Source of the DNA: a virus
DNA length: 64,000 nucleotides
Direction: 5' to 3' (one strand)
IMG/VR virus record: IMGVR_UViG_3300032093_000060
Coordinates: 1 to 64,000 of that record
The translations under genes were made by a program, and so were the position numbers. Of this stretch, positions 4,401 through 51,573 are shown piece by piece. The notes below the pieces were generated by a model. The model was given only the letters and a program-made list of their open reading frames with translations, was not told where the DNA came from and ran no database searches. The stretch's first letter is position 1; every line of letters begins with the position of its first letter.

Positions 4401-7400
4401 ATCATCTTCATTTTCTCAGCACCTAATAACTCTGGTACTGGTTGTCCTTGCTCATCTTTATAAGCATACATGAGGTTATATATTTGATCAAAAGCATTGC
4501 TCATGTCAAATTCTTCACCCATTACTTTTACAATTTTTGATTGAAGCTCTCTTAACTTTGTAGTTAAATCTTTTCTTGAATCATAAAATTCTTGTGTATA
4601 TGCAACCCTTAAGTTTTGTTTAAGCCAGTCTTGTTTTGCTTTTTCTAATTCATCAGCAGTAAGATCTTCTTGATCTTTTAAACTTAAAAATTCATTATAA
4701 GCAGTTTGTAATGAACCAGCTCTAGGTATAAACTCATAATAATCTCCTGATGCAGCTCTATGTTCTAAAAGTATTCTTGTGATTGATAAATCATAAACAT
4801 CATTAGCTGGATCATCAACTTTTTCAGTACCATCTGGATATGTTAATGAGTAAAGATTTCTATAATCTCTCCATAGTTCTTGAAGAGTAGAATACTTTTG
4901 AAATCTTTCAAGCTCATCACTTAATTCATTTGATTCATTATTGTATGCGTCAAGTGCCATTTTTCTAGTAAGCCAAGCTCTCTTACCTAGATCTCCATAC
5001 TTATCAAATATATTATCTTTCTCATAAACTTCAGGAATAAACTCATCATGCATGTAGTCTCTCTTGAACTGTCTTAATGCATTTGTTGCTTCCTTAATTT
5101 TTTCTTGATCTTCTGTAGACCATGCTTCATCAACCTGATACTCTAAAAGATCTTGTGCATATCTCCAACCATTACCAAATTCATTTAAGAAAGTAAATAC
5201 TTCTTTCTCAACAGGTTTTTTTGTTTTTGGATCAATGAATAAGATCTTATCCTTAAACATTAATAAATCTGTAAGCTGTCTTGTTTTTAAAGTATTATAT
5301 CCAACTCGTTCTAATAATGGTTCAAGTTGTTTCCTAAATTTATATGATTTTTCAAGGGCCCTGTTATTAGCTTCTGTTCTTTGATCATTAATAAAAATAG
5401 CTAATCCACCTACTATAGGATCATTACTAGATGTATAGCTCTCAAAGAATCTATTGAACCAACTTACATCTTTTAATTTACCTGACAAACCATCAGTAAT
5501 TTTATCTTGGTTCATCAAGAAGGTATTATAGTCATCTATAAACTTCTTAATGTATTCAGGCTTAACTCCTTTCTTTTCATACTTGGCATATAGCTCTTCA
5601 TAATCTTCTGGAGTCAATGTTTGTGTAACCGCACCATTATATAGCTCTTCTATCTCTGTGGGAGTAAGTTTCCCAGTTAATGCATTTTTTAAATTCTTAC
5701 CAAGTTCTTCTTTTAAGAAGTCATTCATGTGACCTGTTATCTCAACATAGAAGTTAACTGCATTTTCTTTATAGATGTCACGGATTTTTTTATCAGCCCG
5801 CATCAAGTTGTTTTTAGTTTCATTAACTAAGTCAACAAGATCATTTGGTTGTGTAACATCAAAACCTTCAACTTCCATTAAGAGCTCATCAAATGTATTG
5901 AACATATCATTATATGATCTAACTGAGCTTCTGTATAAAAATAAAAGTGCCATTGCATCTCGGGAAGAATCAAACTGCCCACTCTTCTGCATCTTAACAA
6001 GATCATTAAAGATGTTCTGAGAAATATTATTTACAACAGTAACACTGTTTACAAAACTTCTTGCTCTGTTAGTTAAGTCCGTAGTTCTTGCTTTTTCTGC
6101 TTCAACAGTGTTTTTTATAATTTCATCAATTGATAGATCTTGAGTATTAGTTATGGTTTGATATCCACTAAGACTCTTTTTTACTCTTGGTGTTAACTCT
6201 TTAGTACCTTTAATAAATAAGGCTTCTCTTAACATTTTTTGGTAAAGCGGAGATCTTGTTCTAAAGTTCTTAGCTTTATCATATACTAATTGATTAGTTG
6301 CATATAAATCATTAAGAGAGTTCTGTATTTGATCAGCCTTTAAATTTTTAGTTAAAGAATCTGCCATAGCTTTTATTTCTCTGGCATATGCAAAGACATC
6401 ATCATTAGTAACATTAGGAGTTTCATACTTAAATGATTTTTCCAAAAGCATATCAGCTAATTCATCAATGCTTGTATCAACATCTATTTTTGCTACACTA
6501 ACTTTAAAGATTCTTTTTAATAGATTTCTTAAACTATCAAGCATCTTTCTTATAAAAGATTCAAATCCTTCAGATTCAATTTGTTCAGTTACTTTATTAG
6601 CAGCTCTAGTCTGTAATGCATATGCTAATGCTTCCTCTTTAAATAAGAAATTATTCTCATCTAATTCTGGATAGTTCATTTCCACATGCTCTTTAATTCT
6701 TTTACCTTCTAATGTTGCCATTAGAGAATCATAAAGATTATTAAATAAAGTAGGATTCTCTCTATAAATAGCTCTAAGTAAAGGGTGAGACATCTCGTGA
6801 AGTACTGTATCAAAGTTTACATTATCCCCAACAATGTATACGGTTCCTCCAAAGTAAAAAGCTGGTTCACCATTATATTTTTTCTTACTTGATTCATGTA
6901 TTTGTCTAGCTTGTTCTGCTGTAATGTTCATGTATCTTACACCCAGTCCTTCAGCAAGTCTATTACCTAATGCATCTGCTGCTTCTCTAGCTCTTGCATT
7001 TTTAATTGTTGCTTCATCAATCTTTGAATCAGCTGGATCTGACATGCTTGTAAATTTATCATTTGCAAAAGTAAAATATCTAAATCCTTTATTGGTAAAC
7101 TTATATCTATCTTCAAAGAAAGGGTCGAAATAAATAAGGTCAGTTAAGTCTTTACCTCTACCCATATTTATTTTTGCTTCAAAGATCTGTTTCCAATCTA
7201 AGTAGTAATTATCAAATACTAATGGATATTTACCCTCATCAGTTCTTAAAAAGAAATCAAGAACATATCTTTTAGGCAGTACTTTACCATTATCGGAAGC
7301 TTTAAAAAAGTTAGCTGCCCCACTACCATCTGCACCTTCTACAAGTACTGTTTCAGTTGGATGTTCAACATATCCAGAAATAGTTATTGATTCACCTTTC

Positions 7401-9079
7401 TTATGATCTTTACCAATAAAAGCAACTTCAAAATTCCAAGTTGGAAACAACTCCTTTAAGTTTTTATACCAAGATTGCTCTTCAAGAAATGGCATCATTT
7501 CTCTAACAAACTTTTCACTGTTTCTTTTACTTCTTTTTTTACTTAAAGGTAATCCTGTCTCTTGAATCCACTTTAAAAATTCCTCAGAATTTTTTTCACT
7601 TCTAAATTGTTCAAGAGTTATAATACCATCTATATCATGTAATTCTTCACTAATTGATCTTAGAACTCTACCATACTTTCTAAGTACTAATGAACCACTT
7701 AATTTATAGTCAAAAGGTGAGTCAAATAAAGTGTCAACTATATACTTTGCATAATCATCTCTTTGAAGACTTGTTTTATAAAATTTTTGCTCATATTCTT
7801 TACCCTTGTTATCAAAGAAATTTCCAGATTCATCTTGATAATAGTTTCTAATAAATTTTTGATATTGCTTTTTATATACATCATCTACAATGTCAAGAAC
7901 AGTATTTCTAAGTTCTTCTTCTTTATATATAGTAATGGCTTTATTGTTAAGAATATTAGCCTGCCACCAGTTATAAAACCTATTCCACATTTTTAAAAAC
8001 CAATTCTCAGCATACTTATCTTTATAACCTAAGCTTTCAAAGTATTCTTTACTGATATCAGGATTTTGTTTTTTATTCCCAAAATAATTGTTATCAACAC
8101 CAACAACAATCATTTCTGCTACAAATTCTAGTATAGCTTGTTTATGAGCATATGGATTAAATCTTGTTGGATCATACTCATATACTTTATCAATTAAATC
8201 TTTAGCTTGTCTATCTTCAAGATAAGGTGTATCTACATATACATCATCTTCTTCTTCAGCTAGATAATCAATTTCTTCTTTTGATGTTTCTTCCGTAGTA
8301 TTTTTACGTTTGTTATACTTTTCATAGACCTCTTTATATTTGGGCCAACTATCAATTCCTTTCCAAAGTTCAATACCAAGTTTAGACTTTTTACCTAAGA
8401 AACTAACAATAACATTAGCTGTTTGCATAGCCATGTCTTTGTCAGATATATTTTCTTTAATTGCTAAGAACTTTTGTAATAAATCAAAAGCTGCTAATGG
8501 ATCCTCTTTAACTATAGTATTACCATTAGCATCAGTATAAGTTCTTCTTTTAATAGGGACCAATACTGCATCAGCATCAATTTCATCTACTTTGATATTT
8601 AATCCTTTCATAAATGAAAGCATTGCTGCTCTCATTTTTTTAGAATACTCTCTATTTAAACTTTCTGTTGAGAAAGTTTTTCTCATGTACATTGGATCTA
8701 ATGACTCATCTGGTGGAAAGTATGCTTCTGGTTCTTTTAAAATATCAAAATCATTCTCAGCTATTTTTACTTCCTCTTCAAATCTCAATTTATCTAATGA
8801 ATCAAACAATGCATCATTAGGTTGTACAAAAAGTCTTACACTGTATGTATCTCTATAGTATGCAGAAGATCTAGTAAGTTTTGTTTTTACTTCATAAGGA
8901 TCATCAAAAAAATATTCACCTTGAGGAATTTTTATATCTGGATATTTAAGCTCTATAAATCTTGTGAACTCTTTATTAAAAGTATCAAATGCATTTTTAT
9001 CTAAAATATCATTATACTCACCAAGTATACCCTTTTGTTTTAAATCTTCTAAAACTGTTGACTTAGATTCACAATACAT
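1439..9079 (-). CDS. Giant polyvalent virion cargo/ejection protein (nucleotidyltransferase, zincin HExxH, LysM, C-terminal hydrophobic region)
   Basis: 2546 aa. SGS...HDIDG near 7620-7705, HEMSH at 6785-6799, LysM-like VKGQTLEDIAKMYGV..EELQQRN at ~2307-2434, C-terminal FMRKWFIPMF and a TM-like helix. Lies next to the virion RNAP as in crAss-like phages. Confidence 0.75.
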   Translation of the reverse strand: MYCESKSTVLEDLKQKGILGEYNDILDKNAFDTFNKEFTRFIELKYPDIKIPQGEYFFDDPYEVKTKLTRSSAYYRDTYSVRLFVQPNDALFDSLDKLRFEEEVKIAENDFDILKEPEAYFPPDESLDPMYMRKTFSTESLNREYSKKMRAAMLSFMKGLNIKVDEIDADAVLVPIKRRTYTDANGNTIVKEDPLAAFDLLQKFLAIKENISDKDMAMQTANVIVSFLGKKSKLGIELWKGIDSWPKYKEVYEKYNKRKNTTEETSKEEIDYLAEEEDDVYVDTPYLEDRQAKDLIDKVYEYDPTRFNPYAHKQAILEFVAEMIVVGVDNNYFGNKKQNPDISKEYFESLGYKDKYAENWFLKMWNRFYNWWQANILNNKAITIYKEEELRNTVLDIVDDVYKKQYQKFIRNYYQDESGNFFDNKGKEYEQKFYKTSLQRDDYAKYIVDTLFDSPFDYKLSGSLVLRKYGRVLRSISEELHDIDGIITLEQFRSEKNSEEFLKWIQETGLPLSKKRSKRNSEKFVREMMPFLEEQSWYKNLKELFPTWNFEVAFIGKDHKKGESITISGYVEHPTETVLVEGADGSGAANFFKASDNGKVLPKRYVLDFFLRTDEGKYPLVFDNYYLDWKQIFEAKINMGRGKDLTDLIYFDPFFEDRYKFTNKGFRYFTFANDKFTSMSDPADSKIDEATIKNARAREAADALGNRLAEGLGVRYMNITAEQARQIHESSKKKYNGEPAFYFGGTVYIVGDNVNFDTVLHEMSHPLLRAIYRENPTLFNNLYDSLMATLEGKRIKEHVEMNYPELDENNFLFKEEALAYALQTRAANKVTEQIESEGFESFIRKMLDSLRNLLKRIFKVSVAKIDVDTSIDELADMLLEKSFKYETPNVTNDDVFAYAREIKAMADSLTKNLKADQIQNSLNDLYATNQLVYDKAKNFRTRSPLYQKMLREALFIKGTKELTPRVKKSLSGYQTITNTQDLSIDEIIKNTVEAEKARTTDLTNRARSFVNSVTVVNNISQNIFNDLVKMQKSGQFDSSRDAMALLFLYRSSVRSYNDMFNTFDELLMEVEGFDVTQPNDLVDLVNETKNNLMRADKKIRDIYKENAVNFYVEITGHMNDFLKEELGKNLKNALTGKLTPTEIEELYNGAVTQTLTPEDYEELYAKYEKKGVKPEYIKKFIDDYNTFLMNQDKITDGLSGKLKDVSWFNRFFESYTSSNDPIVGGLAIFINDQRTEANNRALEKSYKFRKQLEPLLERVGYNTLKTRQLTDLLMFKDKILFIDPKTKKPVEKEVFTFLNEFGNGWRYAQDLLEYQVDEAWSTEDQEKIKEATNALRQFKRDYMHDEFIPEVYEKDNIFDKYGDLGKRAWLTRKMALDAYNNESNELSDELERFQKYSTLQELWRDYRNLYSLTYPDGTEKVDDPANDVYDLSITRILLEHRAASGDYYEFIPRAGSLQTAYNEFLSLKDQEDLTADELEKAKQDWLKQNLRVAYTQEFYDSRKDLTTKLRELQSKIVKVMGEEFDMSNAFDQIYNLMYAYKDEQGQPVPELLGAEKMKMIKKLNQEIIDYKAKFDTKTGLSRDEAEELDLYIALTKKGSDKLNDEQKLRYRQLLEKQAKSGLSIGEVALMQNIYAELSSLTRKTPTEYYIDSLNEHLQRLEVATVTEDEVDAFINGQEMRNLLSTDGKLVDWFRDNHVSRKVKNNKTRKLELRYERTMANSISIPKNEKYYEKTTLLNELTGEEETFNGLPNARHSQYRVKDKYRTGYNSKTGEVELEVGVHIDNKGQYLPRLFTNVNDSNSAKDDKYINKDYMRLKEQTTSARFQLLKLMKDAHLEFQEDKSNKSKLYLDMPRYILRDSLTRIQSGEISERYNQIKKGVGQYLRDSWGKSVDEGEREHNYERDNNLEEYRLVNTDLNSEEISYIPVSGLYNIDVDNTDPDVVRGMFKYLLSLEQQSQLLQTLPLVQSILDTLEDPANAPKSPNTYSKTLNRIKGKLVHTTKPGASNNRAGQVRSLIEREYYGKQYSGEGSSVYLDKFIGQMQKLSARASLAINIPSDLKNRYGQIVQNMIESAGGEFITVKDLAKARLWAATTMLEWSAKSVYSKGTPALSSQLIEMFDSAFKIEDDFGRSVSRNFAKDMMNGEWMYNIRKNLEMEASLQLFGAFLNAQKVEQKLSNGKTIMLNYKDAWQINKDTGIAELKPGVDPAWSNKTIYHDYVKGQTLEDIAKMYGVIVEELQQRNKVVDAIEFEDGQEIIIAKSEKFKLFRNKFQGVSHRLYGSYDKFAQSEGNLYLPYRMFTFMRKWFIPMFTNRFGASVEIQDGKWYKPKFNKRYDWMTTKTTIGFYINAFLGMKELIKSKGKYWSYMPADQKADLMRTLTESLFIITMALLASMLWGYDPDDPDRFKKIRERSGAFGTDEFKTWGFIQNHALLLLLGAQAETSAFVPLPTMFGVNFGADDYMKMATTTTSAFGNTIGLYVKIFEDIFKVITFNEKAYYQTDQGEYLWQKEGSPKVIGHLLKTVGINGNTGQVDIALEGLENAGRLK

Positions 9080-9082
9080 TAC

Positions 9083-12000
9083 TTAACATTTTAATGGGTT
9101 ATTTTCACCTTCAAATTTAGCTAATATTTCCGCATCTGTAATTGGTTGTAAATTAGCTATTTGATCACTTACCTCATTTGCAAATTCAGAACCTGGGTTT
9201 AAGTACTGGAATTCCTCAAATAATCTTCTACTTAAATATACGAATAATTCTTGAGGCATCAAAGCAGGATCACCATAACCATTAATTGAGAAAGCAACTT
9301 TACCTCCATCATTAATTACATCATTAATCTGAGCAATTGAGTCTTCAATAATGTTTTTAATACCGTCATAGTATTTAGCATCTAGTTTAGAAAAAGCATC
9401 AGATAAACTATTTTGTCCTGCTATTAAACCTATAGAAGAGCTATTTGCAAATCTTTTCAATAACACCTGACCGGATATTTTTTTCTTAGCAAACTCAGCT
9501 GGAGACATCTGCTCATATGCTTGTTTCTGACCAAGGCTGAATTGATATACAAAAGTAATATCTGGATTATTTTCAACTATATACTTATATGCATCTGCTG
9601 TTTCTGATAGATCATTATAAACAAAAACATTAGGATTAACAGTTGAAATTAGATTTACTCTTTTTACAATTGTTTCTGGTATCTCTGTATCTTCTTCAGA
9701 TATCTGATCTTCAAAAGACATTTCTGGGTTATTCCCCCAATAATTATATCCTTGAGATGTTTGACCCGTGGGTTCACCAATAGCTTCTTGCACTAATGCC
9801 TCACCACTTTTATTCCAAGATCTATTTGCATCTTCTGTGGAATCCATAATTACAGTACCACCGGCTTCAAGAATTTCTCTAGCATTTTCAATAGTTTCAT
9901 ATATAGCTTCTTTAGTTGCTTTATTGTTACCATTAACACTAACAAATGCTACAGTAAATTCACTTATTCTTCCTTCATAATTTATACTAATGCCACTCTT
10001 TGCTGCATCAATAGCATACTGATATGTGCTTGTACCAGGAGCTCCATATCCAACAAAATGATTTGCTAGATTAGCTTTACCTTGGTCTTTACCTTTTTTA
10101 TCAATAGATAATTTAAATCCAAATATAGACTTTGAGCTTATAGCTTTGCTTGATTTTTTAGGATTACTTAAAACATTTTCAACATCATAACCTGTCAAAT
10201 AGTTTTTAAAACGCATCTTGTTTTTATTATCAAGACCATTAGCTTTTACAAATCTATTTTTAAAATTGATTAGCATTTGATATTTCTGATCAGAACTTAA
10301 GTTTAAGAACTTAGATGTTTCATCATTCATAATATCTATAAACTGCTCAAAGTTTGTCAAGTTTAAGAAGTTGTATTTGTTTTTATTAGTACCAGCTTGC
10401 ATCATAGCAATAAATGTAATCTTTGCAAAGAAGTCACTTATTCTGTTATTCTCTTCTCTGTCAGTTACTTTTTGCACTGTTCTATCTGCAAGATCTCTAA
10501 GATTTTTTGTATAAAGATTAGACTTGAAGCTATTCATATCTTTATCATCCACAAACAAGTTAAACATTGTTTTATCAAAACTTGTGTCTACAACCATTCT
10601 AGAAAGAACAGGATAGTCTTTTACAAAATCAGTTCTATATTCAGTTTTAATTCTGTCTAGTCTTACACCATATGCAGTATCAGGATTATTAAATAGATGG
10701 TATGGATTCAATACATTATCAAGTGCTCTTGAAGCTAGAATTTTTTCATAAGCATATCTTCTTAAAAAAGTGTCATTTGCTTCAACTCTACTCTTCTTAA
10801 CATTCTCTAGTTCTTTTGCAAACTCTTTAGTTTTAACAACATCTGTTATAGGCATAAGATGTCTTAAGTACTCTCTTTCAATTACAAATCTGGTATACTC
10901 TTGTAAATTTGAATCTGTATTTTTAAATGTCCCTACAGGAAGCGGGTATAAACCACGTTTCATATAGCTATTTCTAGAATCTGAATCTTCTAAGAAGTCT
11001 TTATGGAAAAATTCTCTTTCAATTTGTACATTATCATATACCATTGTTGGTCCTTCTGGAGTTTCAACAACTTGCGCACCAAAGGTTAATCCAGCAGCTT
11101 GTGTAAGTTTAATTGAATCACTCAATGCATATGAACTATACTGATCATTAAGCTGATATTTTCTCATAGCATTTTGGAAAAGATAACTTAATAAGTCATT
11201 TCTAAATACCACTGGGAAGATATCTCTGTACTTTGCACCAAATGCTGCTTTTAGATATGCATTATTTTTAAAGTCAGATTGTATAGCATCTATATACATT
11301 TGAATATCTTCATCATATCTAAACTTAAATAATGGTTTAGATAAGCCTCTTACAAGCTTAGTATTAAAGAATGAACTAATAATTGAGTCATTAATCATAC
11401 TCATTCTGAGATCCTGATCAATCTTAGATTCTGTAGCTAACTCTTCTAGTTTTGTTTCAGCTTGTATTGCTTGACCTACATCCGTCATTGTTGATGTATC
11501 TGGATTAGATGCCATCTTTAAAGCAGTGAGACCTTGTATCTGTTGCTCAATAGTTAGAAAGTGTAAGAACATTGTGCGAGAAAGATTACTTCTAGCTGCT
11601 TTAGGATTATCCTTTGAATCCTCTATCAGTTTAAGCATTTCTTCTTCTGTAAAGAAGTTTCTACCAGCTTTAGTAAAATACTTATCTAACATATCTGCTC
11701 CTACCTCATATCTAGAAACATTATCTGCTAAATATTTTTCAAAGTTTCTAGCAATTACATTTCCAGCAGCTTTAAATGCTGGACCTTGTGTACCTGGTAA
11801 TTTTCTTAATGGTTCAGCAAATGTACTTTCTGCAAGTCTTTTTTCTTTTACATACTCTCTTACAAGAGGTTGTGATACAAAGTATACTGCTTCTTTAAAA
11901 GGAACTCCGGCTTTAAGTAAATATAATAGAATTGGAGCCACCTCATAGTTACCTTGTACAAAGAATACCCATGCATCTTTCTCAACATCCACCCAACCGT

Positions 12001-15000
12001 TCATTAACTGATTGATGATGTCAGCCACTTTATTTATACCATCAACATCATATTGTTTAGATATAGATATTACATCTTCTCCATTTTTTCTAACCTTATG
12101 GTGTCTTAATCCTAAAGTTGAGATTCTTTCATTTTCCTCAGTGCCATGTGTATACACAGCCGGCATTGTTGCACCTAATGAATTGAATATAACATTAAAG
12201 GTGTTTTCAATTGCTCCAAGACCGAGAGTCTTTTTACCTACAACATTTGACTCATGTTTATATAAGTTATATCCAACTTCAAATATTCTTGTTGGGCTGA
12301 TCACTTCTTTTTGTTTTCCACGTTTATCTGGAGCAGAAAGATTTACTGTATCAGATGACATGTTTTCTAATGGATTATAGTCCATAACAAACTGAGCTAA
12401 TTTATCTGCTGTAGGTTTAACAAGATATGTTCCGTTTGGTGTTGTTAAAGAAACAAAGTTCTCTGGCAATTCAAGTATACTTCTAATATTATTTAAGAGT
12501 AAGTTTTCAAGACCAGCTTTTTGCATAGCAAACATTTCTTCCTTAGTCAAATTATATTCAGAAGGATTTTTAAGTGCATTGTAGAACTCCTCAGCATTAT
12601 CAAACAAGGTTTGCATAACATTTCCATCAGCATCAATGTTATTCATGAATATAGATAACTTATCAATGTCAAAGTCAGCTCCTGATTTAGCTACAATTTC
12701 TGCTGGAGGTATAATTATATTACCTGCTTCTGGAGGTAAGAAATGATATATCTCCATAAATTCCATAGAGTTAAGACCCTGCACCGGAATCCTAACACCC
12801 ACCATAGTTATTGCTTTTCTGTTAGCTCCATCATTAGCATCTAACCATTCATCATCTTTAATAGCTTCATTAAGTCTATCAATTGTAGAAATAGGTTCAC
12901 CTTTATATTCTAGGTTTAATAAACTTTCGTAGTCTCCTTGTAGTGAAATAGCAACCTTCATTGCAGTTGTCAATCCATTTTTTCCAACATGATATGTAGG
13001 TAAAAAGTTAGAGCCCATGTATTTTTTAACTGCTTCAGCCCTAGCAGTTTTATTCATCTTATCTAGATCTATTGGTAATTCAAATAGACCATCATAGAAT
13101 GCAGATGATTTTTGTACAAGAGGTTCTCCTTTTACTTTTTGCTTGATTATTCTTTTGTTGATTAGAGACAATAAAAGTTTTTCAATCTTTACTGCTTCTG
13201 GATGTAGAGATAGGTCAAATCTTAAATCTCCAGCATCTGTAACATCAATAATATCAATTAAATCATCACTATATACATCATCAGCTGTAAGTGTGTCACG
13301 GATCATTTTTGCAAGCTTAGCTACACTATCTTTATCTTTAGGTACAAACTCACCGTCTTCAGTTTCTTCAAAACCAATTTCATTAATTAATTGATTTTTA
13401 AGTAGTTCAGTATATTCACCAACTCTATTAATATAATTTTGAGCAAGTTGTTTTACTCTTGGATCTTTAGAAACTATATCTCCATCTTCATATAATCCTT
13501 CAAGTACCATTTTTCTTAACTGAGTTGAGAAGATTGATACATTTTTATATTTAGAGTTTACTTCTGTTTGGTTCTTAAGATACTCTGCAAAAATTACATT
13601 TTTTGTAAATTGCACAGAACTATCAATATTACCGTTAGCATCTGTAATAACATCACCATTACCTATGTGACCAACCTTTTCTCCTGTTTCCATCAAAACA
13701 TAATCAACATTTTGAGATAACATCATATCATGAATTTGGCCCAACTTAGTTAACTCTGTGTGAACAGAAGGAATCAAAGGAGCTAATGAAAATTTGTGAA
13801 AAGATGTTAAAGGCAGTCCAGTTGTCTTAATGTTGCCATAGTACTGTAATTTATATGGAGGAAAATATTCTTTAATCTCCGCAGCAGTAATAGGTTCATT
13901 ATTTACAATTCTTTTATAAAGATTTTCTTGTTCAGGAGACCATTTATCTTCAAGAACTTTTAACATTCTATATGCTTCAAAATTAATCCATCCCTGACCA
14001 TCAGCAACTTTCATGTTATTATAGTCTTGTAATACAGTTGCTGCTAATTCTTTTGCTTTTTCTTTTGCCTCTGTTTTAGAAAAGCCTGCTTTTATAAATC
14101 TTTCAGTATATTGTTTTTCATGAAGCTTATTGTATTCATCATAGTATGGAGATTTTTCAATAACCTCTTCTCTAATTATGGCAGATGTCAACGTTCCGTT
14201 ATATGCATTTAAAGTATAACCTTCTCTTTCAGCATAGAGTCTTTGAAACATAGGACTATTTATATATGCTCTAGCTCTAAAGTCTGCACGGAACCCTCTA
14301 CCACCAGAACCTAAACCAGCATTTCTTTTATGAAACTCTTCTTTATCGTGATTGTATTGTACAGCATCACCATAAGCTAGTATTGTTGTTTCATAGTTAT
14401 GAATAAAATAGTTGTAAGTATATGCTTTGACAAACATTTTTTCTATTTGATCATTAGATAGATCTTGTTTACCAATCATTTCATAAAGACTCTGATCTAC
14501 ATATTTAGCACCTTGTAGTCTATTATAATTTTGCTGTGCCTGCTTGTTAAAGTAATTGATTATATCTTGTTTAACTTCTCTTCTTAAATCTACATTTTCA
14601 TTGATAATATCTTTAAGATTAAAGTCTTGAACATTATAATAACCACTTGCTGACATTTCTGCAGTAGCTTCTTCTATATTCTGATCTATTATTGCATACA
14701 GTTTTTCTTGTGTTTCTGAAGTCAACATGTCATCAAAAGCTGTAAATGCCTCTCCTGCTTTTACTACTTGACCATTATCTTTTCTTATTACATCTCTGTT
14801 ATAAGAAGAGAATTTTTCAAAATATGGCTTGTTTGATTTAAACCTATATATTCTTCCACCTTCTGCTGCAATATAACCAAGTATAATATTAAATGCTTCT
14901 AGTTCACCCTGATTGTTTCCAGCAACAGTATTATTTGGTGAGAAAGCTAAAGTATCTACGTATAAGTTATTTTGTTCTTTACCAGAATAAGTATTTACTT

Positions 15001-18000
15001 TTTTTGCTCTAAGATTCATTGCTGTTTGCTTAGAGGCATGTCTCATAAACTCTACCACACCGGATTGTAACATTGTATGTAGCTCTTGTAAAAATTTACT
15101 AGTAACATCTGTAGTAGCTGTTAAAGCTCCAGTAGATTCATTAGTATCTCTATTTACAATTTGAGTACCTCCAATGTTTTCTAATAAGAGCTGAGCTCCT
15201 GGAAACTTATTTCCATAATTATCTGATAATGGATTTAAGTCAAATATTGAATTTAATACTACAGAGAATTCTGAAGCAGGGTTATTTGCTTCATTCAGCC
15301 ATCTCATATGCTGAAATCTACCGTTAGGATCTGCTTTACTCATGGTTAATTGTTGCCATGTCTCAGCTCTATTTATGGAAGTTACAATTCTAGTGATAGT
15401 GTTATCTAAGAATTGTTCCCATACTCTATTCTTTTCAGGAGTTAAAACACTAAAGTTAGAATAGCCATCTGAGTATCTGTTTTGTAACTCTGCTAAACCT
15501 GTTATTTTTGTTCTAACATCCCTTGCTTTTCCACCTGCAGCTTTTTCTATTGCTTCCGGTAATCCATTTAGTAAATAATACATTGGATTAAGCTTGAAAT
15601 TTTCAGCAGCTGCATTTAATGCAATATCATCAGCTTTTGCTGATAGATGAACTAATCTTAAGTTGTCAAAAATAAAGTCAACATTGTATCTTCCTGCAAA
15701 AGATTTCTTTGGATTTCTAACAACTGTTCTAATATCAGCACTTGTCATATCCATAACAATACCAAGAGACTTTAAAAGATCATTTGCTTTAGACTGATCT
15801 AAGACTTTACCTTTATTGTCAACACTAAAATCCTTTATGATTTGTGCAACATTCAGATAATTAACACTTGAGTTATTGGGTCTTATTATATATGGGTTTG
15901 TTGCAGGATCTGCAATGTTAAAATTGGTTGTCCAATCATTTATAATTCTATATATATCAAGGTTGGCTGCAGATAATCTTGATTCATATCTAGCTTTTTC
16001 TGGTATAAATTTACCATCAACTTTTTTAGCTTTTTCTAAAACACTCTTATTAATTGTAAGTTGTATGTATGGAATAACTGGTTTTTTAAAGTCTTGCCAA
16101 AAACTTGTCTCAGATCTAAACTCACTACTATTATTATATGCAGCTGGGCCCATTTGATATGGATTAGGAAGTGCTTCAAGAACTTGAATAAATTCAGGAT
16201 TGTTATCTGTACCTTCTCTAAGTCTCTCATACATTTCTTCAAAATCCAATGAACCCTGTAGAGTTCTGGCAGTTCTATTCCACATATCATTTAGTGGTTC
16301 TAAAACTGGAAGACCAAACTCATCAGTTTCTATACTGTATGCCTTTACACCATTCTCATCTGTTTCAAAAATATAATCCTCATTTTCATCTCTTTGCAGT
16401 TTGTATATTCCTGATAACATCATTAATGTATCGTCTGTAGCTAATTCTTTTGCTGAAAAAGTATTGCCCTCAGTAGATTTGAATACAGCAACTGTTGCAT
16501 CTTCTGCATCATCAACATATTCATCTTTAAGAATACTAAATCTAGATCTTCTCATATGAAAAGATACTACACCCTTGTTAGTTTTCTTAGATAGAGATAG
16601 TGCAATGTCTCCAAAATTTGCAACTGCTTTAAATAAAGTATCAAGTTTATTTTGCTCTGCTAATTCAGTTATATAATCAGGATTTTCAGAAGTTGCATTT
16701 TTGAGAGTCAAGCCTTTTACAATGTCCACCTGCCTTTCATACAAAGCTGTTAACTGCTTCTCTACAGAAGCATACATCCTTTGTCTGTTATTTACATCTC
16801 CTAATAATCTTGTAGCACCACTTGTTGTATTATATCTTGTATTATATAGTCTAAAGTTTCTAGCAAATAAAGAATCTATAATATCAACAATTTTATTTGA
16901 TTCTGTATCTGAAATTTCTACAAATGCTTCAGCTTCATTTTTTAAAGGTTGAATAAGATTTTTAGAGCTATTCAATCTTTGGAAACCTGGCATTATATTG
17001 CTCTCTGCATTCTGAGTATCAATTGTAAAATTACCGGTGTACAGTTTTTCAAAATATTCTTTAACTACAGGAATATCATAAAGCTTTGATACATCTTTTT
17101 TACTTGTTTTTCCAAAGAAGTAATCAATTAACTTTTTAATTTTATCAAATATAGTTTGAATAAATCCTTTTTGTTTTGTACCGTTAACAGCATATTCAAT
17201 AAAGTCTTCAGCTAAGTCTTCTTCAATTTCTATATATTCTTTAGTTGCCCACTTATCATAGGTTCTAATAGTATCATATAGTTTAGTTTTTTCTTCTCTT
17301 GTAAGTACAAGCTGAGAAAAAGCATGCCATGCCTCATGGTATAATGTAATTGGTGTTGCATCTCCATAAAGATCTATTCTTGCTGCAAAACCTTCTTGTC
17401 TAAGTTTATTTGTTGCATCAGATAAAAGAGAGCCAGCAGAAAGAAATTTTCCATATGCAGTAGAGTTAAACACAAGAGCAAGTCTTTGCCTTTCTACTTT
17501 TGCTAGAAATTTTAAAGGAGTTGTATCCCACCATTTTTCTACTTCATCCCAAGTTTTAGCATTTCCATAAAGTTGATTCATCATTGATGATGCCACTTTC
17601 TTTCTCTCTATTCCTCCTTCAGGTATGTATTCAAAACCTTCAAGAAAGTCTAATGAAGGTATACTATTTATTTTTTTGTCATTTAGCTTTTGTTGTTCTA
17701 CTGTTTTTGTTGGTACAGGTTCTTTTTCTGGAACAGTAGTAGACTCATCAACTGGTAAAGCAACTTTTGCTGCAGCTTTTTTATAAGTTTTAGAGGACTT
17801 AGAAACAAATCTTTTTACAAAATTTTCTTTACTGTTTTTCTTTATTATAAATCCACCTTTTGTTCTTGCAGGATATCTTAATGCAAAACCTTTAAAGGCT
17901 CTTACTTTAACGGGAATACCTAATTTTTTTGCAGCTTTGATTGATGCTTCCGCTATACCGGTTTGACCATTGCTTACAATTTTAGTTATAGGATATTGTT

Positions 18001-20326
18001 TAACTACTTCACTAAGAATATTGTATACATACTCATCAACATCCTTTTGAGTATAACCATCCTTAGATAATAAAGCCATGTCAGTTCCAACAATGTTTAC
18101 TACACCATTAGATATCTTGGACAATCCCTGAACAATATTATTAACTGTATTTTCTGCCAGTTTAAAATTCTTTGGGGCATCCTTTTTAGAACCAATTTTT
18201 AGAGCATAGTATTTATCACTTTTTGAAATATTATTTGCTACTCCAGTGGCCATAAAAGATGTACCTAATCCAAAAACAACATCAGATTCTTTAGCATTAG
18301 CAAGCATTACTCCCTCATTATCTAAGGTACTTTGAAAAACTTCAATAGAAAATTTCTTTCCTGTTTCCTCATCTTCTTCAGTTATAGCTTTTGAAGGAAG
18401 TGAAACATTTGTACCATTATCAATATCATCTGATGTTAAATCATCATTGATTGGTGAGTCAATATCAATCTGCTCACTCAGTGGAGTTGTTAAATCTGCA
18501 GGTACAGTAAATGATAGATATGCATTTATTCCAACAAAGTAGTTTGCATCACCCTCTGTATAATCAACTTTCATGAATGGTTTAATAAAATCAAAGTAAT
18601 CTTTCTTTACTTCTCTTATTATATCAACTCCATCTTTGTTTTTTGTTATTTGATAATCAGAAAACTGCACCCCTTTTTGGATTGCACCATCAACTGCAAA
18701 GTCCTCCATGTAACTCATACTTGCTGGATATGAGACTTGAGTACCATCATTTTTATTAATGATTTTTGTTTTCATTAGATGCTTACTAATTATATCAGCA
18801 GCATCATCTTTATCTAAGTCAACATTAGTTTTTTCTTTGGTAGCAGGATCTTCTAATACAACAGAAAGCTTTTGCTCATTCAGTACTTCTTTTATCTCTA
18901 CATTAATTCTATTGTTAGTTGTAGTATTTGCTAAGAAGGTAGAGTAGTATTTAAGTTTAGCTTGTGGAGTCATAGGTTCTCCATTTAGTAAACCTTTTGT
19001 TGTTAAAACAGCTGCAATATTATCAGCAATCTCTTTTGTAATGTCCATTCTTTGTAAATAGATTTGGCCATTAACCGATACTCCAGCACTTACTTTATTA
19101 GTAAGGAAATAACTATATCCTTCAAGACCTGCTGCATGGATATAGATCATCTCAACATCATTAGCAAAATCTGTTTTAGAAAGTAACTGTGATTTATGTT
19201 CAATTATCCCGTAGCTTCCATCATTTATGGGTAGCATGACAAACTGTTGATCACTTGGTAAATTAGCAAGCTTTTCATTTAGTCTTGCTAAGTCATTCAT
19301 TTTTTGTTTTTGCTTACTTCTAATATCTGATATTAATGATTGTCTTTCTTTATCTCCATACAAAATACCATTATTAGTTTCATCAGTTATTTGTTTTTGT
19401 GCAAGTTCCTCTGCTGAAATTAAATTATATATATAACCAGAGCGATTTCCTAGATATAACTTACCTTGTCTATTTACTACAGGTCTAATATATTGATAAA
19501 CTATTCTTCCACCTTGTTTAACTACATTACCATTTTCATCAAATCTAATAGGATTACCTATTGTATCAGATATGATGGCAACATTGATATCATATGTTTT
19601 ATTCTTAGCTAAGAATGTTTTATCATCATTAGTAAGATCATCCGGTGCAAGGGATCTAATAGGTTGAGCTCTTAATGCAACTGCAGTATCACCCAACATT
19701 ACTTGATCATTTACATTCCTTTTCTTTGCACTCCATACAGTAGCTTTAATTACGTCATAGAAAAGTTTCTTTTGAGGATCTTTTTGATTTCTTTCAGCCT
19801 CACTCATTGTTTCAGGATTCTTTGCAATTGCAATATTTCCAGTTAACTTATCTGGATAATCTACTTTTGCTTTTTCCTGCACCGCAGACCAAATTCCTTT
19901 TTCATTGTTATTATTATCTTGACCAATATTTTTAGAGTTCTTATTGCTTGATTTAATACTACTCTTTATAGACTTAGAAGATGGCTTACTAACCGGACGA
20001 GTAACAAATTTTACTACATTATCTAAATTTTCAAAATCCAAAGATAAATCTTGTACATAGTCAAAACTTAAACCTGCATCTTTTCTTAAATATGTTTTAA
20101 TTTCAAGATCATTCTTAACAATGTCTAACATATCTGGAATAGCTTGTACATAAAGAAGACCATTAGGTTCATCTTTATATTCTTCGTACACCTCCTTAAT
20201 AAATTTATCAAGAGCTTTATTGTCAAATTTACCAAGTTTTGGATCATTGATTCTATCCATGATCTCTCCATGTACTATTGTGTATAAAGCACTTATATCA
20301 TTTTCAGTATAGAGTTGACAAGCCAT
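9083..20326 (-). CDS. Virion-packaged single-chain RNA polymerase (crAss-like/phi14:2 gp66 type) with accessory domains
   Basis: 3747 aa. Catalytic loop GADFDIDK (DFDID at 12662-12676) preceded by RIPVQGLNSM. ADGQGWI and STQLRK motifs, zincin HEAWH at 17324-17338, SLOG-like KIVSNGQTG near 17950. Confidence 0.88.
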   Translation of the reverse strand: MACQLYTENDISALYTIVHGEIMDRINDPKLGKFDNKALDKFIKEVYEEYKDEPNGLLYVQAIPDMLDIVKNDLEIKTYLRKDAGLSFDYVQDLSLDFENLDNVVKFVTRPVSKPSSKSIKSSIKSSNKNSKNIGQDNNNNEKGIWSAVQEKAKVDYPDKLTGNIAIAKNPETMSEAERNQKDPQKKLFYDVIKATVWSAKKRNVNDQVMLGDTAVALRAQPIRSLAPDDLTNDDKTFLAKNKTYDINVAIISDTIGNPIRFDENGNVVKQGGRIVYQYIRPVVNRQGKLYLGNRSGYIYNLISAEELAQKQITDETNNGILYGDKERQSLISDIRSKQKQKMNDLARLNEKLANLPSDQQFVMLPINDGSYGIIEHKSQLLSKTDFANDVEMIYIHAAGLEGYSYFLTNKVSAGVSVNGQIYLQRMDITKEIADNIAAVLTTKGLLNGEPMTPQAKLKYYSTFLANTTTNNRINVEIKEVLNEQKLSVVLEDPATKEKTNVDLDKDDAADIISKHLMKTKIINKNDGTQVSYPASMSYMEDFAVDGAIQKGVQFSDYQITKNKDGVDIIREVKKDYFDFIKPFMKVDYTEGDANYFVGINAYLSFTVPADLTTPLSEQIDIDSPINDDLTSDDIDNGTNVSLPSKAITEEDEETGKKFSIEVFQSTLDNEGVMLANAKESDVVFGLGTSFMATGVANNISKSDKYYALKIGSKKDAPKNFKLAENTVNNIVQGLSKISNGVVNIVGTDMALLSKDGYTQKDVDEYVYNILSEVVKQYPITKIVSNGQTGIAEASIKAAKKLGIPVKVRAFKGFALRYPARTKGGFIIKKNSKENFVKRFVSKSSKTYKKAAAKVALPVDESTTVPEKEPVPTKTVEQQKLNDKKINSIPSLDFLEGFEYIPEGGIERKKVASSMMNQLYGNAKTWDEVEKWWDTTPLKFLAKVERQRLALVFNSTAYGKFLSAGSLLSDATNKLRQEGFAARIDLYGDATPITLYHEAWHAFSQLVLTREEKTKLYDTIRTYDKWATKEYIEIEEDLAEDFIEYAVNGTKQKGFIQTIFDKIKKLIDYFFGKTSKKDVSKLYDIPVVKEYFEKLYTGNFTIDTQNAESNIMPGFQRLNSSKNLIQPLKNEAEAFVEISDTESNKIVDIIDSLFARNFRLYNTRYNTTSGATRLLGDVNNRQRMYASVEKQLTALYERQVDIVKGLTLKNATSENPDYITELAEQNKLDTLFKAVANFGDIALSLSKKTNKGVVSFHMRRSRFSILKDEYVDDAEDATVAVFKSTEGNTFSAKELATDDTLMMLSGIYKLQRDENEDYIFETDENGVKAYSIETDEFGLPVLEPLNDMWNRTARTLQGSLDFEEMYERLREGTDNNPEFIQVLEALPNPYQMGPAAYNNSSEFRSETSFWQDFKKPVIPYIQLTINKSVLEKAKKVDGKFIPEKARYESRLSAANLDIYRIINDWTTNFNIADPATNPYIIRPNNSSVNYLNVAQIIKDFSVDNKGKVLDQSKANDLLKSLGIVMDMTSADIRTVVRNPKKSFAGRYNVDFIFDNLRLVHLSAKADDIALNAAAENFKLNPMYYLLNGLPEAIEKAAGGKARDVRTKITGLAELQNRYSDGYSNFSVLTPEKNRVWEQFLDNTITRIVTSINRAETWQQLTMSKADPNGRFQHMRWLNEANNPASEFSVVLNSIFDLNPLSDNYGNKFPGAQLLLENIGGTQIVNRDTNESTGALTATTDVTSKFLQELHTMLQSGVVEFMRHASKQTAMNLRAKKVNTYSGKEQNNLYVDTLAFSPNNTVAGNNQGELEAFNIILGYIAAEGGRIYRFKSNKPYFEKFSSYNRDVIRKDNGQVVKAGEAFTAFDDMLTSETQEKLYAIIDQNIEEATAEMSASGYYNVQDFNLKDIINENVDLRREVKQDIINYFNKQAQQNYNRLQGAKYVDQSLYEMIGKQDLSNDQIEKMFVKAYTYNYFIHNYETTILAYGDAVQYNHDKEEFHKRNAGLGSGGRGFRADFRARAYINSPMFQRLYAEREGYTLNAYNGTLTSAIIREEVIEKSPYYDEYNKLHEKQYTERFIKAGFSKTEAKEKAKELAATVLQDYNNMKVADGQGWINFEAYRMLKVLEDKWSPEQENLYKRIVNNEPITAAEIKEYFPPYKLQYYGNIKTTGLPLTSFHKFSLAPLIPSVHTELTKLGQIHDMMLSQNVDYVLMETGEKVGHIGNGDVITDANGNIDSSVQFTKNVIFAEYLKNQTEVNSKYKNVSIFSTQLRKMVLEGLYEDGDIVSKDPRVKQLAQNYINRVGEYTELLKNQLINEIGFEETEDGEFVPKDKDSVAKLAKMIRDTLTADDVYSDDLIDIIDVTDAGDLRFDLSLHPEAVKIEKLLLSLINKRIIKQKVKGEPLVQKSSAFYDGLFELPIDLDKMNKTARAEAVKKYMGSNFLPTYHVGKNGLTTAMKVAISLQGDYESLLNLEYKGEPISTIDRLNEAIKDDEWLDANDGANRKAITMVGVRIPVQGLNSMEFMEIYHFLPPEAGNIIIPPAEIVAKSGADFDIDKLSIFMNNIDADGNVMQTLFDNAEEFYNALKNPSEYNLTKEEMFAMQKAGLENLLLNNIRSILELPENFVSLTTPNGTYLVKPTADKLAQFVMDYNPLENMSSDTVNLSAPDKRGKQKEVISPTRIFEVGYNLYKHESNVVGKKTLGLGAIENTFNVIFNSLGATMPAVYTHGTEENERISTLGLRHHKVRKNGEDVISISKQYDVDGINKVADIINQLMNGWVDVEKDAWVFFVQGNYEVAPILLYLLKAGVPFKEAVYFVSQPLVREYVKEKRLAESTFAEPLRKLPGTQGPAFKAAGNVIARNFEKYLADNVSRYEVGADMLDKYFTKAGRNFFTEEEMLKLIEDSKDNPKAARSNLSRTMFLHFLTIEQQIQGLTALKMASNPDTSTMTDVGQAIQAETKLEELATESKIDQDLRMSMINDSIISSFFNTKLVRGLSKPLFKFRYDEDIQMYIDAIQSDFKNNAYLKAAFGAKYRDIFPVVFRNDLLSYLFQNAMRKYQLNDQYSSYALSDSIKLTQAAGLTFGAQVVETPEGPTMVYDNVQIEREFFHKDFLEDSDSRNSYMKRGLYPLPVGTFKNTDSNLQEYTRFVIEREYLRHLMPITDVVKTKEFAKELENVKKSRVEANDTFLRRYAYEKILASRALDNVLNPYHLFNNPDTAYGVRLDRIKTEYRTDFVKDYPVLSRMVVDTSFDKTMFNLFVDDKDMNSFKSNLYTKNLRDLADRTVQKVTDREENNRISDFFAKITFIAMMQAGTNKNKYNFLNLTNFEQFIDIMNDETSKFLNLSSDQKYQMLINFKNRFVKANGLDNKNKMRFKNYLTGYDVENVLSNPKKSSKAISSKSIFGFKLSIDKKGKDQGKANLANHFVGYGAPGTSTYQYAIDAAKSGISINYEGRISEFTVAFVSVNGNNKATKEAIYETIENAREILEAGGTVIMDSTEDANRSWNKSGEALVQEAIGEPTGQTSQGYNYWGNNPEMSFEDQISEEDTEIPETIVKRVNLISTVNPNVFVYNDLSETADAYKYIVENNPDITFVYQFSLGQKQAYEQMSPAEFAKKKISGQVLLKRFANSSSIGLIAGQNSLSDAFSKLDAKYYDGIKNIIEDSIAQINDVINDGGKVAFSINGYGDPALMPQELFVYLSRRLFEEFQYLNPGSEFANEVSDQIANLQPITDAEILAKFEGENNPLKC

Positions 20327-20328
20327 TC

Positions 20329-23300
20329 CTATTTTGGTTTACATTTATTAATATTATCTTCTTTACTCTTATTTTTCAATGCTGCTAATCTATCTTTTTT
20401 AGACATTGTAGATGCATTTTGTTTTGCTTGATTGATTAACTCAGGATTGTCTGCAAAATCTTTAATACTGCTTTTTGAAATTGTTGAATTTTCTTTTTCT
20501 TCTAGTGTGGGTTCCATAACTTCTTCTTCTACTTTTAATGCTTCTTCTGTAGTTTTAGTAAAGCTAGATTTTATCTGTGCATCAGTAAAAGTTTTCTGTC
20601 TTGGTTTACCATTTTGAATATTCTGAACTTGGTTAACAGTTACTTTACCATCTGCTTTTTTCTTAACTACTACTATTTCATTTTCAGTGATACCAAAGAT
20701 AGGATTTTTGCTAATAAGATAATCACCTACATTAATATTTTCCTCTGATGTATCAATATTTAATGCTTTCTTTCTCATGAAATATACATTCTCAATCATA
20801 TCTGTTGCCTCTATACTTGTTTCTGCAGATATTGCAAAAATTGCATCAGTATATGCTTTTTCTAATTCTGCTAAATCCTTAGCAGATTTAATAGCATCAA
20901 TTAGTTTTACAAACTCTTCTACTGAGATTGATTCAATATCAAATGTAATACCTGACTTACCAGCAAGCAATGCTTTTCTTTCTTCTTCACTAAGTTCATC
21001 CTCCTCATTTACATTAGTTTCGGTAGTTTCTAAAGCAGATAATTTTGTTTCAAGTGTTTTCTTTCTAGCCATGATCTTTTCATATTCAGGAGAATATGTT
21101 ACCATGCTACCGACAGTTATAACTCCACCATTTGGAAGTGCCGCTAACTTTTTATCTTGATCAGCAATTTGTTTTTTTAACTTTTTAATTTCAGCTTGTT
21201 TTTGAGCTTCAGTTAATACAGGTATAGATGGTGTCTCATCTATATTTTCTGGTTTTAAATTTTCTGGAAGAGCAGGAGCTTTCATAATTACACCATTCTC
21301 TGCTAAGACATTATCATCAATAGGAGTAAGTGGCATTGTTGTAGCCTTTTCTAAGTTCTTAACTCTTTTTTCTAATGCTTCAATCTCCTCAGTGTTTGGC
21401 GCAGTTGCTTTTTTAAGTGCAAGTATTTTATTATTTAGTTCTCTAATAACAGGAAGATTTAATTTCTTAGCTGCTGATTCAGCACTTAATATATTACCAT
21501 CCATATCAGTTGTTAATTCAACCGGTAGAATTGATATATTATTGGCTAATTGTCCAGTCATATTAAATATTAATGCTCTATACAAAGAGAGTTGTAATCT
21601 ATATGCAAACTTTTTACTGTAAGGATTATTCTCATCATTAAAAGATGCCCAGTTTTCAGGCTTACCTGTTTTAATATCTATGATTTTAAGATTGCCCTTT
21701 TTATCAATAGCAATTAAGTCCATAGCACCAACTAGTCCTGACTCAAGTAAAGTAGGATCATATAGGATAACATCTTGTGAAATAATATCAAACTCACCAT
21801 CTATAGCTGCATCTTGTAGCTCAGTCACTATTCCTCTATCACCAAATAGATTATCATAGGCTTGTTGACTCATTTTAGCTGGCTTCTCAGGTCTCATAAA
21901 CTTACCATTCTTATCCAAAGTAAATGCAACACGTGTCATTGCATCCACTGTATTACCAGCAATGGTAGATTCATCATGAGCAATATCTTTAACAACAGCA
22001 ACTAATGTATCTTCTGTAAATCTATTATCTAATGCTTTTTTGATTTTATTAATCTTTCTCTGACTTTTTAGTTGTTTTAACTTATTATTTTTTAACTCAC
22101 TTTCAAGAGCTTGAATAAATAAATTAACTCTTTCTGCATCAGAGGCAATAGCATCATCTTCTTTAATAGCTCTAAAGATAGAAATCAATTGACCTTGAGG
22201 TTTTCCTGTTTTAGCATCAACCCCTGGTTCTTTAATAGCAGCATATAGGTAAGCTTCTTTCTGATTGATTTTATTATCTATCTCTTCTGTAAGTTTTGTT
22301 ACCCGCATTGGTCTACCGTCTACTCCTGGAAACTCATAACCAATTGTATTTCCTTCTGCATCTAAAACTCTTGTAACTCCACCTTGTTTGTTAACTACCA
22401 TCTCTTCAAAAATTCTGAAGACTTGTTGATATTTACTTTTTGGTTTAGTATTTAATCTCAAGTAGTTTAGATATTTTCCTAACTCCTTTATATCATTTTT
22501 TATATTTCTTGATTGTTCTGCAGTTAGAGGTTTATCATTATAGTTATTTTTTCTAAGAATATTTTCTAACTCATCTCTCATCAATCGAATTCTAGTTAAA
22601 CCATATTCAGTAATTGGTTTCTTTAAAGGCAAAAATTTAATGTTTGGTAAAGCTGATTCAAGATCCATAGGTCTTTCATTGTAAGCTTTAATCATTTGTT
22701 TTTGTTCTGGTTTTTCAAGCCAGTTATTCCTTAAAAGATTATATTGTTCAGGATTTACTCTTTCTAAATCTTTTGGTTTACCTAAACCTTGTGGAGCAGG
22801 TGAAGTTAAATACTCATCAAAAGCTATTTGTAACTCTGCTCTAAGATCATCAGGAAGTTCATTCCATGGTGCATTAAGATCTACCTCATCTGAAGTTGTT
22901 TTTTTAGATGGTGCTTGTGGTCTTGGTGGAGTATCTTCTGTAGATTCAGTAATTTGATCTTTTAATTTTTTTACAAGAGCATCATACCTTCTATTGGTTG
23001 TCTCAATTTGTTTTTGATAATCTTTCCAGGCATCAGTTGTTTCAATTGGTCTAACTGTTTCAGATTCTTCAACAGGCTCAATGGTATTTAATTCAGCAAT
23101 TTTATCATTGAATATTTGATTAAGACCAAATTTCATTTCAACTGCTCTAAGTCTTTCTTCATCAGAGTAGTCTTCTTTACTTAATGTCTTAAGAAATTTT
23201 TTAGCTTCTTTAGTGTTATCAGCAATAGCTTTATCTTTTATCTCAGCCCAATTTTCAGGAATAAGATTCTGTTCAGCTAAAGCTTCATATAGTTCATTTA

Positions 23301-49277: not shown

Positions 49278-49278
49278 A

Positions 49279-51532: not shown

Positions 51533-51534
51533 AT

Positions 51535-51565: not shown

Positions 51566-51573
51566 TATAGGTA

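Follow-up and report, generated by a model that had tools for sequence, protein, structure and literature searches.

The window analysed here, 64,000 nucleotides (nt) comprising positions 1 to 64,000 of the IMG/VR virus record IMGVR_UViG_3300032093_000060 (89.8 kb in all, and estimated to be 75% complete), derives from an uncultured phage; it contains the structural module of a distant crAss-like phage, encoded entirely on the minus strand. Our subject is the last three genes of this module, A, B and C, and the four cysteines found at the facing ends of the giant proteins they encode. In gene order, A (20329..26742) encodes a protein of 2137 amino acids (aa) homologous to crAss001 gp47 (BLASTP E-value 1e-10); B (9083..20326) a virion RNA polymerase of 3747 aa, homologous to crAss001 gp50 (5e-16) and phi14:2 gp077 (4e-12); and C (1439..9079) a protein of 2546 aa, homologous to crAss001 gp49 (7e-8) and phi14:2 gp076 (6e-5). 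The DFDID catalytic motif of two-barrel RNA polymerases is found at residues 2551–2555 of B (12662..12676), with D2551, F2552, D2553, I2554 and D2555 each invariant in an alignment of 29 sequences; the corresponding motif of phi14:2 has been described as 1361-DFDID-1365 of ‘gp66’ (Drobysheva, bioRxiv version), the 2180-residue RNA polymerase so named in Drobysheva 2020/2021 and listed in GenBank as gp077.

The triads of crAss001 and phi14:2 are homologous to that of the window, have the same gene order and DFDID motif, and follow the same cysteine rule, as set out below; the proteins of the window are, however, larger, with identities of 22–25% in the conserved cores. A, B and C are therefore best explained, on homology and gene order, as the RNA-polymerase-associated cargo triad of a crAss-like phage. 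In crAss001, gp47, gp50 and gp49 are present in virions and have been treated as cargo that must partially unfold in order to leave through the tail (PMC10172136); packaging of the triad in virions is known only for crAss001 and phi14:2 (PMC10172136; Drobysheva 2020/2021), and the copy number of the three crAss001 proteins has only been estimated, with around 6 of each given as an example (PMC10172136). The masses published for them, 262.5, 276.9 and 154.5 kDa (PMC10172136), add up to ~694 kDa.

Taken together, A, B and C contain just four cysteines in 8430 aa (0.047%), all located at the two gene junctions. The sole cysteine of A is residue 2134, fourth from the C-terminus (...NKCKPK*; codon 20341..20343); B has cysteines only at residue 3 (MAC...; 20318..20320) and at residue 3747, its final residue (...NNPLKC*; 9086..9088); and the sole cysteine of C is again residue 3 (MYC...; 9071..9073). 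The gaps from stop codon to ATG at the two junctions are 2 and 3 nt, and all four cysteine codons are TGT. Neither outer end of the triad, that is the N-terminus of A and the C-terminus of C, carries a cysteine. An earlier, sequence-only reading of this DNA had arrived at the same picture by manual scan, and our computed count bears it out: there is no internal cysteine in A, B or C, none at the outer ends and none in the adjacent 1097-aa protein, whilst the summed mass of the three proteins, 963.6 kDa, agrees with the chain of ‘nearly 1 MDa’ that it envisaged.

This composition lies far below that of other proteins of the phage, the remaining 16 open reading frames (ORFs) of at least 150 aa in the window having 163 cysteines in 11,109 aa (1.47%). 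At that frequency the probability of finding four or fewer cysteines in 8430 aa is 8e-48, and even at 0.5% it is 7e-14; moreover, four cysteines placed at random would all land no more than four residues from the four facing termini with a probability of 1.2e-12. As many as 1519 codons of A, B and C are a single substitution away from a cysteine codon. A chance origin of the pattern is excluded, with P about 1e-12 or less.

The terminal cysteines recur among relatives of all three proteins, which we sampled as 348 metagenomic homologues (120 of B, 108 of A and 120 of C). For B, 115 of the 120 best homologues (39–100% identity) begin MAC, with M1, A2 and C3 invariant in the B alignment (A1); all 120 have a cysteine within their last three residues, as part of a [ND]P[LF]xC motif, and only four have an internal cysteine, one in each case. 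The five that do not begin MAC (P0037, P0038, P0041, P0109 and P0118) begin differently, three of them being much shorter proteins. The homologues of A extend down to 21% identity, with 107 of the 108 carrying a cysteine within their last 10 residues—in 105 it is the only one—and the single exception being a 1303-aa fragment. In C the N-terminal motif M-x-C is present in 116 of 120 (112 with the cysteine at residue 3, and four in which the motif sits behind a start codon called too far upstream); the four homologues without it are shorter (P0262, P0264, P0323 and P0324), and five of the 120 have one extra cysteine. Residue 2 of C varies freely (F, V, A, T, S, I, Q, L, D or Y) while Cys3 stays.

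A wider HMMER search with the core of B, made against 1.84 billion representatives of 50%-identity clusters, returned 2727 matches at E ≤ 0.001. We examined the best 150 of these, of which 143 were new: 120 have both terminal cysteines, 18 only that at the C-terminus, four only that at the N-terminus and one neither, with 43 internal cysteines in the 497,956 aa of the whole set. Across relatives, the N-terminal cysteine occupies positions 3 to 6 and the C-terminal one lies between −1 (the last residue) and −11, in tails of acidic character (DLLDDLDC and EEDPFKC are examples). The sequence-only reading had proposed conservation of the terminal cysteines in orthologues as a check on its idea; they turn out to be near-invariant in the 348 homologues and present as a complete set in those 120 of 143 further representatives. 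Sequence comparison across hundreds of relatives thus supports strong selection for a cysteine at these termini. We also noted a B homologue of 6381 aa (locus L087, 9741–25115) that contains two cysteines only, at residue 5 and at its last residue.

The cysteines of neighbouring proteins are, in addition, coupled to each other. In 78 IMG/VR loci we called plus-strand ORFs of 500 aa or more, taking the first ATG of each as its start, and counted as terminal any cysteine within 12 residues of an end, giving 276 terminal against 30 internal cysteines in 614,945 aa. Giant ORFs follow one another at 196 junctions: in 135 there is a cysteine on both sides and in 58 on neither, most of the latter being junctions between A and a cysteine-free protein like the 1097-aa protein of the window. 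Just three junctions have a cysteine on one side only, and each is an artefact of ORF calling or of a frameshift: in L022 the true start is downstream of the first ATG, and in L055 and L078 the N-terminus (MACNS... and MVNCS..., respectively) follows directly after the upstream stop codon, having been cut off by a frameshift. Codon use is mixed (257 TGT and 19 TGC), and the distance of the cysteine from the end of the chain varies. These comparisons support the view that the cysteines behave as two pairs, each present on both sides of its junction or on neither. As a separate observation, frameshifts break giant cargo genes in three of the loci (L053 7623–7629, L055 20830–21165 and L078 7604–7727); these may be assembly errors or real breaks.

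We then read the triad in 14 named phages, all of which follow the rule, placing the junctions of fused genes approximately, by BLAST offsets, in all but cr10_1 and cr271_1. Five phages—crAss001, phi14:2, DAC15, cr116_1 and bajarodcaudo virus 1—have three separate genes, and here the cysteine of A lies at −1 to −4, those of B at residues 3–5 and at −1 to −9, and that of C at residues 3–6. Thus, crAss001 gp47 has its sole cysteine at −3, gp50 has cysteines at residues 5, 1334 and −9, and gp49 has a sole cysteine at residue 5; in phi14:2 the sole cysteine of gp078 is its last residue, gp077 has cysteines at residues 3 and −2, and gp076 has a sole cysteine at residue 3. Three of the phages that display the pattern, crAss001, phi14:2 and DAC15, are in culture. 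In crAss001, gp47 is encoded on the strand opposite to that of gp50 and gp49. For bajarodcaudo virus 1, C is annotated with a start that overlaps B, which puts its cysteines at residues 16 and 23, the start call being uncertain. In this phage (L007 22630–23361), as in cr116_1 (L006 21732–22379), the polymerase gene is interrupted by an endonuclease-like insertion with 3–6 cysteines; the insertion looks intron-like, and the annotated pieces of polymerase are therefore not separate cargo proteins.

In the remaining nine phages two of the three proteins are fused, and the cysteines change accordingly. A and B are joined in Flavobacterium phage Fpv1 and in the Suoliviridae cr50_1, cr1_1, cr7_1, cr109_1 and cr10_1; the fusion has no N-terminal cysteine but has one at −1 to −11 from its C-terminus, and C begins with a cysteine at residues 3–5. 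The 4401-aa fusion of Fpv1 has a single cysteine, at −2, and the inferred A/B junction is free of cysteine in cr50_1, cr1_1 and cr109_1. In the Intestiviridae it is B and C that are joined (p-crAssphage gp44, crAss002 gp33 and cr271_1): A ends with a cysteine at −2, and the fusion begins MSC (found in crAss002 gp33 at an internal methionine, Met33) and has no C-terminal cysteine. Both of the mapped fusions of this type, p-crAssphage and crAss002, have no pair at the inferred B/C junction. The converse is seen in L090, where C is split into a 655-aa ORF (MAC...SIC*) and a second ORF beginning MLSC..., so that the extra junction gains a cysteine pair of its own and the chain grows to four members. 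Such natural polyproteins (A+B and B+C) resemble the triad of the window in their modules and in the order of these, a peptide bond taking the place of the window's cysteine pair; they differ in that their joint is not reducible. Among proteins of the cargo region in Intestiviridae, p-crAssphage gp47 (L002 5588–8161) has a cysteine at −2 of its 857 aa and crAss002 gp30 (L005 6393–8066) one at −8 of its 557 aa, the next product lacking an N-terminal cysteine in both.

Whether fusions lose the pair was another check put forward by the sequence-only reading, and the answer is largely affirmative: the pair is absent from four of the five mapped A+B fusions and from both mapped B+C fusions, the fifth A+B fusion, that of cr7_1, being the one that does not conform.

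A structural precedent for such a pair exists in the cyanopodophage A4 (Anabaena phage A-4L), for which a cryo-electron microscopy (cryo-EM) structure shows Cys1715 of gp27 joined to Cys5 of gp26 by a disulfide in the virion, a bond presented by its authors as stabilising a pentameric ring (PNAS 2025, PMC12002296). From the A4 GenBank record we find that these are the sole cysteines of the two proteins (gp27, 1717 aa; gp26, 1114 aa). As in the window, then, consecutive genes for ejection proteins have their sole cysteines at facing C- and N-termini; unlike the window, A4 is a member of the unrelated family Saffermanviridae, its set has a single pair instead of a chain with two or three joints, and no RNA polymerase takes part. 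The published account, as far as its text goes, presents no general rule and nothing on the exclusion of other cysteines or on gene fusion and fission (PMC12002296).

The depletion of cysteine also has its parallels. In the Schitoviridae, suppression of cysteine against a background of ~0.9% has been described for the ejection proteins N4 gp50 and DEV gp71, gp72 and gp73; DEV gp71 and N4 gp50 are without any cysteine, and passage through the periplasm is cited as the selecting force (PMC11445570). T7 gp15 and gp16 likewise have none, and gp14 (T7 gene 14, L092 3729–4319) has a sole cysteine at position 2. These systems are like the window in that giant ejected proteins, a virion RNA polymerase among them, are nearly free of cysteine; they differ in having no terminal pairs, and in N4 the three parts form a single polypeptide. 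The statement of the sequence-only reading that it knew of no description of the mechanism does not hold in this light, since both the A4 disulfide (PMC12002296) and the cysteine suppression of Schitoviridae (PMC11445570) were already on record. In the literature we searched, the 2026 N4 paper included, we found terminal cysteines or covalent chaining of crassvirus cargo nowhere described. What appears new here is accordingly the rule for crassvirus cargo, one A4 bond (2025) and cysteine suppression (2024) being known already; particular to this cargo is the combination of total exclusion of cysteine with one cysteine per side of each joint.

Our favoured reading, to which we assign a probability of roughly 0.7, is that head-to-tail bonds between termini, most likely disulfides, join A, B and C into an unbranched thread of ~964 kDa. 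In the virion, the C-terminal cysteine of A would be bonded to Cys3 of B, and the C-terminal cysteine of B to Cys3 of C, so that the products of three genes would become a polyprotein after translation. We pair each C-terminal cysteine with the next N-terminal one because this model best fits the pattern of pairing at junctions; other arrangements do not fit, because each leaves an unpaired cysteine after fusion or needs two independent losses. One such arrangement, a link from A to C with B closed upon itself, was rejected on exactly these grounds. As a rule of sequence, the placement of the cysteines is well supported; as to the bond, a disulfide is the simplest chemistry and is made likely, by analogy, by the cryo-EM structure of A4.

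On this reading the three proteins would travel in the head and enter the host by way of the tail, and such tethers would cause them to be packed and expelled together, in a fixed order; a fixed stoichiometry and order of threading would follow. Other cysteines would be selected against, leaving no side links or loops, as stray links could form wrong pairs with the tethers or keep the chains from unfolding partially, as they must to pass the narrow tail channel; and with tethers only a few residues from the chain ends, each joint would be barely thicker than a single chain. Once inside, the bonds may open in the reducing cytoplasm. Release of the RNA polymerase by reduction in this way is plausible, judging from the general redox state of bacteria.

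Several observations weigh against this reading. Some concern the pattern itself: 23 of the 143 further B representatives lack one or both terminal cysteines, although many of these are short; we assume that they, and nine exceptions from the homologue searches, are truncated, because many are shorter than their relatives. L053 holds A in two overlapping frames with no cysteine pair at the break, which is probably a frameshift. The A+B fusion of cr7_1, which has 13 cysteines, retains two (2570 and 2625) near the inferred fusion point, and the lone C-terminal cysteines of p-crAssphage gp47 and crAss002 gp30 face no partner. Others concern the bond and its opening. Gut crassviruses inhabit an anoxic, reducing environment, and the cytoplasm of their hosts is reducing too. 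The naturally fused A+B and B+C proteins evidently tolerate a permanent joint, unless it is cut by a protease, and the release step is weakened because these fused forms work without a reducible joint; cleavage of the polyproteins by a protease has been suggested (Drobysheva, bioRxiv version). No match to thioredoxin (PF00085), the only redox family searched for, was found in the 89.8-kb, ~75% complete record. Mass spectrometry (MS) was run on both reduced and non-reduced crAss001 virions (Bayfield 2023, PMC10172136), and the only disulfides reported there are those of the tail, in purified virions; neither that paper (its supplements aside) nor the bioRxiv version of Drobysheva mentions cysteines of the cargo or any covalent link between cargo proteins. 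Finally, in a comparison of sequence only, A4 gp26–gp29 are not significantly similar to the crAss set (best BLASTP E-value 0.34), and the precedent is on that account an analogy only, the likeness perhaps being due to convergence.

It is also conceivable that the termini do pair, but by a metal ion, a thioether, a persulfide or a non-covalent interface strengthened by cysteine. The comparative data speak for pairing and not for its chemistry, gut phages assemble and persist under reducing conditions, and the acidic C-terminal tails could aid metal binding. A stable metal site is, however, unlikely because each terminus offers a single cysteine with no conserved histidine or second cysteine nearby, and the variable position of the cysteine (3 to 6; −1 to −11) is more in keeping with a flexible tether than with a structured site; the equivalent pair in A4 is modelled as a disulfide (PMC12002296), and tail proteins of crAss001 do form disulfides in purified virions (PMC10172136). 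We regard this alternative as improbable. An ATCUN-type metal motif at the N-terminus was rejected outright, given that the cysteine ranges over positions 3 to 6. Comparably improbable, in our view, is that the terminal cysteines bond to other partners (further copies of the same protein, a ring of B, the portal or the inner capsid) and so anchor the cargo in the head. Neighbouring structural proteins are rich in cysteine, the lone C-terminal cysteines of p-crAssphage gp47 and crAss002 gp30 would be natural under this scheme, and the copy number of the crAss001 cargo, being an estimate (PMC10172136), leaves room for it. Separate anchors or homodimers would nonetheless have to be lost two at a time upon fusion of A with B, whereas what we see is that both cysteines are missing together in four of five mapped A+B and two of two mapped B+C fusions, that both are present at the extra junction of L090, and that a cysteine on one side of a junction alone is the rare case (three, all explained, as against 135 with both and 58 with none); the A4 structure, moreover, contains a hetero pair (PMC12002296).

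Slightly less probable again is that depletion alone is functional, with oxidation or jamming in the periplasm being avoided and the terminal cysteines either tolerated, chain ends being harmless, or serving some unrelated role such as processing or modification of the ends. Suppression without terminal cysteines does occur, in DEV gp71 and N4 gp50 (PMC11445570), and T7 has none in gp15 and gp16 and only Cys2 in gp14; mere tolerance, though, fails to explain terminal cysteines that are near-invariant down to 21% identity, and leaves unexplained both the pairing across junctions and its coupling to fusion and fission. That the cysteines reflect chance, or a nucleotide signal for translational coupling at abutting gene ends, we consider barely credible. 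The junctions of the window are indeed only 2 and 3 nt long and all four codons are TGT, yet the probabilities given above are about 1e-12 or less; a DNA signal at gene junctions is ruled out because crAss001 gp47 keeps its C-terminal cysteine with gp50 on the other strand; and residue 2 of C varies while Cys3 stays, the C-terminal cysteine wanders between −1 and −11, and TGC is used as well as TGT. We also rejected a split intein or trans-splicing: A, B and C have no intein or Hint match in Pfam, and their cysteines are found only at the chain ends, whereas intein halves would call for one ~100 residues before the C-terminus of A or B and for another, preceded by asparagine, ~35 residues into B or C.

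Crassviruses are the most abundant viruses of the human gut, and at stake is how they pack, and then expel through a narrow tail, an RNA polymerase and its helpers amounting to ~0.7–1 MDa. Head-to-tail tethering, if correct, would account for the co-packaging of three proteins in fixed proportion, for their ordered passage through the tail, for the near-total absence of cysteine from ~8400 residues, and for the freedom with which these genes have fused and split in evolution; the lone A4 bond would, besides, become one instance of a principle general to protein ejection. A broader version of the idea, an ‘ejection train’ in which crassviruses and, independently, podophages such as A4 chain their cargo by terminal disulfides that are uncoupled by reduction in the cytoplasm, is one that we put forward tentatively and rate as rather less likely to be right than wrong. 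In this broader version, uncoupling may help to turn on a self-inhibited virion RNA polymerase, and fusion or fission of genes would exchange a peptide bond for a disulfide or the reverse.

Around the triad, the module is arranged as in other phages of this type. We describe the window as Crassvirales-like because of Pfam matches to tail ring proteins 1 and 2 (CrAss_Ring_1, PF24228, 5e-8; CrAss_Ring_2, PF25702, 1e-21) at 49279..50954 on the minus strand. From here, the module runs through ring proteins, giant tail/muzzle proteins and a cysteine-free cargo protein to the triad at its end, an order identical to that of crAss001. The cysteine-free member is the 1097-aa protein (26729..30022, minus strand), encoded directly upstream of A; crAss001 gp46, in the corresponding position, also has no cysteine, and the ORF upstream of A is cysteine-free in every IMG/VR locus that includes it, save L091 (two internal cysteines). 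It is probably a further cargo protein that lies outside the chain.

Domain searches of the triad gave a PD-(D/E)XK nuclease match in A (Pfam; residues 1651–1797, 21352..21792) and a weak LysM match in C (residues 2220–2245); otherwise Pfam and PHROGs returned only one PHROG of unknown function, in B. A phmmer search of the Protein Data Bank sequences found no match for A, B or C, and tblastn of C against the phage collection found none either. Both B and C contain a zincin-type HExxH motif—HEAWH at residues 997–1001 of B (17324–17338) and HEMSH at residues 761–765 of C (6785–6799)—whose H, E and H do not vary among the homologues aligned (29 and 30, respectively); because of this invariance, both proteins may be metallopeptidases.

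The sequence-only reading had also contrasted the triad with ‘very Cys-rich’ outer virion proteins. This is true of the genes at 43731..58889, but not of the 1275-aa and 2383-aa proteins, which have two cysteines each. At the rich extreme, and thus opposite in character to the cargo genes, is a run of virion-module proteins without Pfam or PHROG match (51642–58889, minus strand), among them proteins of 684 aa with 55 cysteines (54598..56652), 574 aa with 20, 470 aa with 15, 179 aa with 10 and 390 aa with 8. The two cysteine-poor giants each have a single close couple, at 245/261 in the 2383-aa protein (36580–43731) and at 1119/1133 in the 1275-aa protein (32694–36521). Similar couples are found in crAss001 gp45 (390/398), phi14:2 gp080 (369/378), the ‘tail lysozyme’ of bajarodcaudo virus 1 (351/359) and, twice, in DAC15 gp080 (211/219 and 273/281); all may represent short intramolecular loops.

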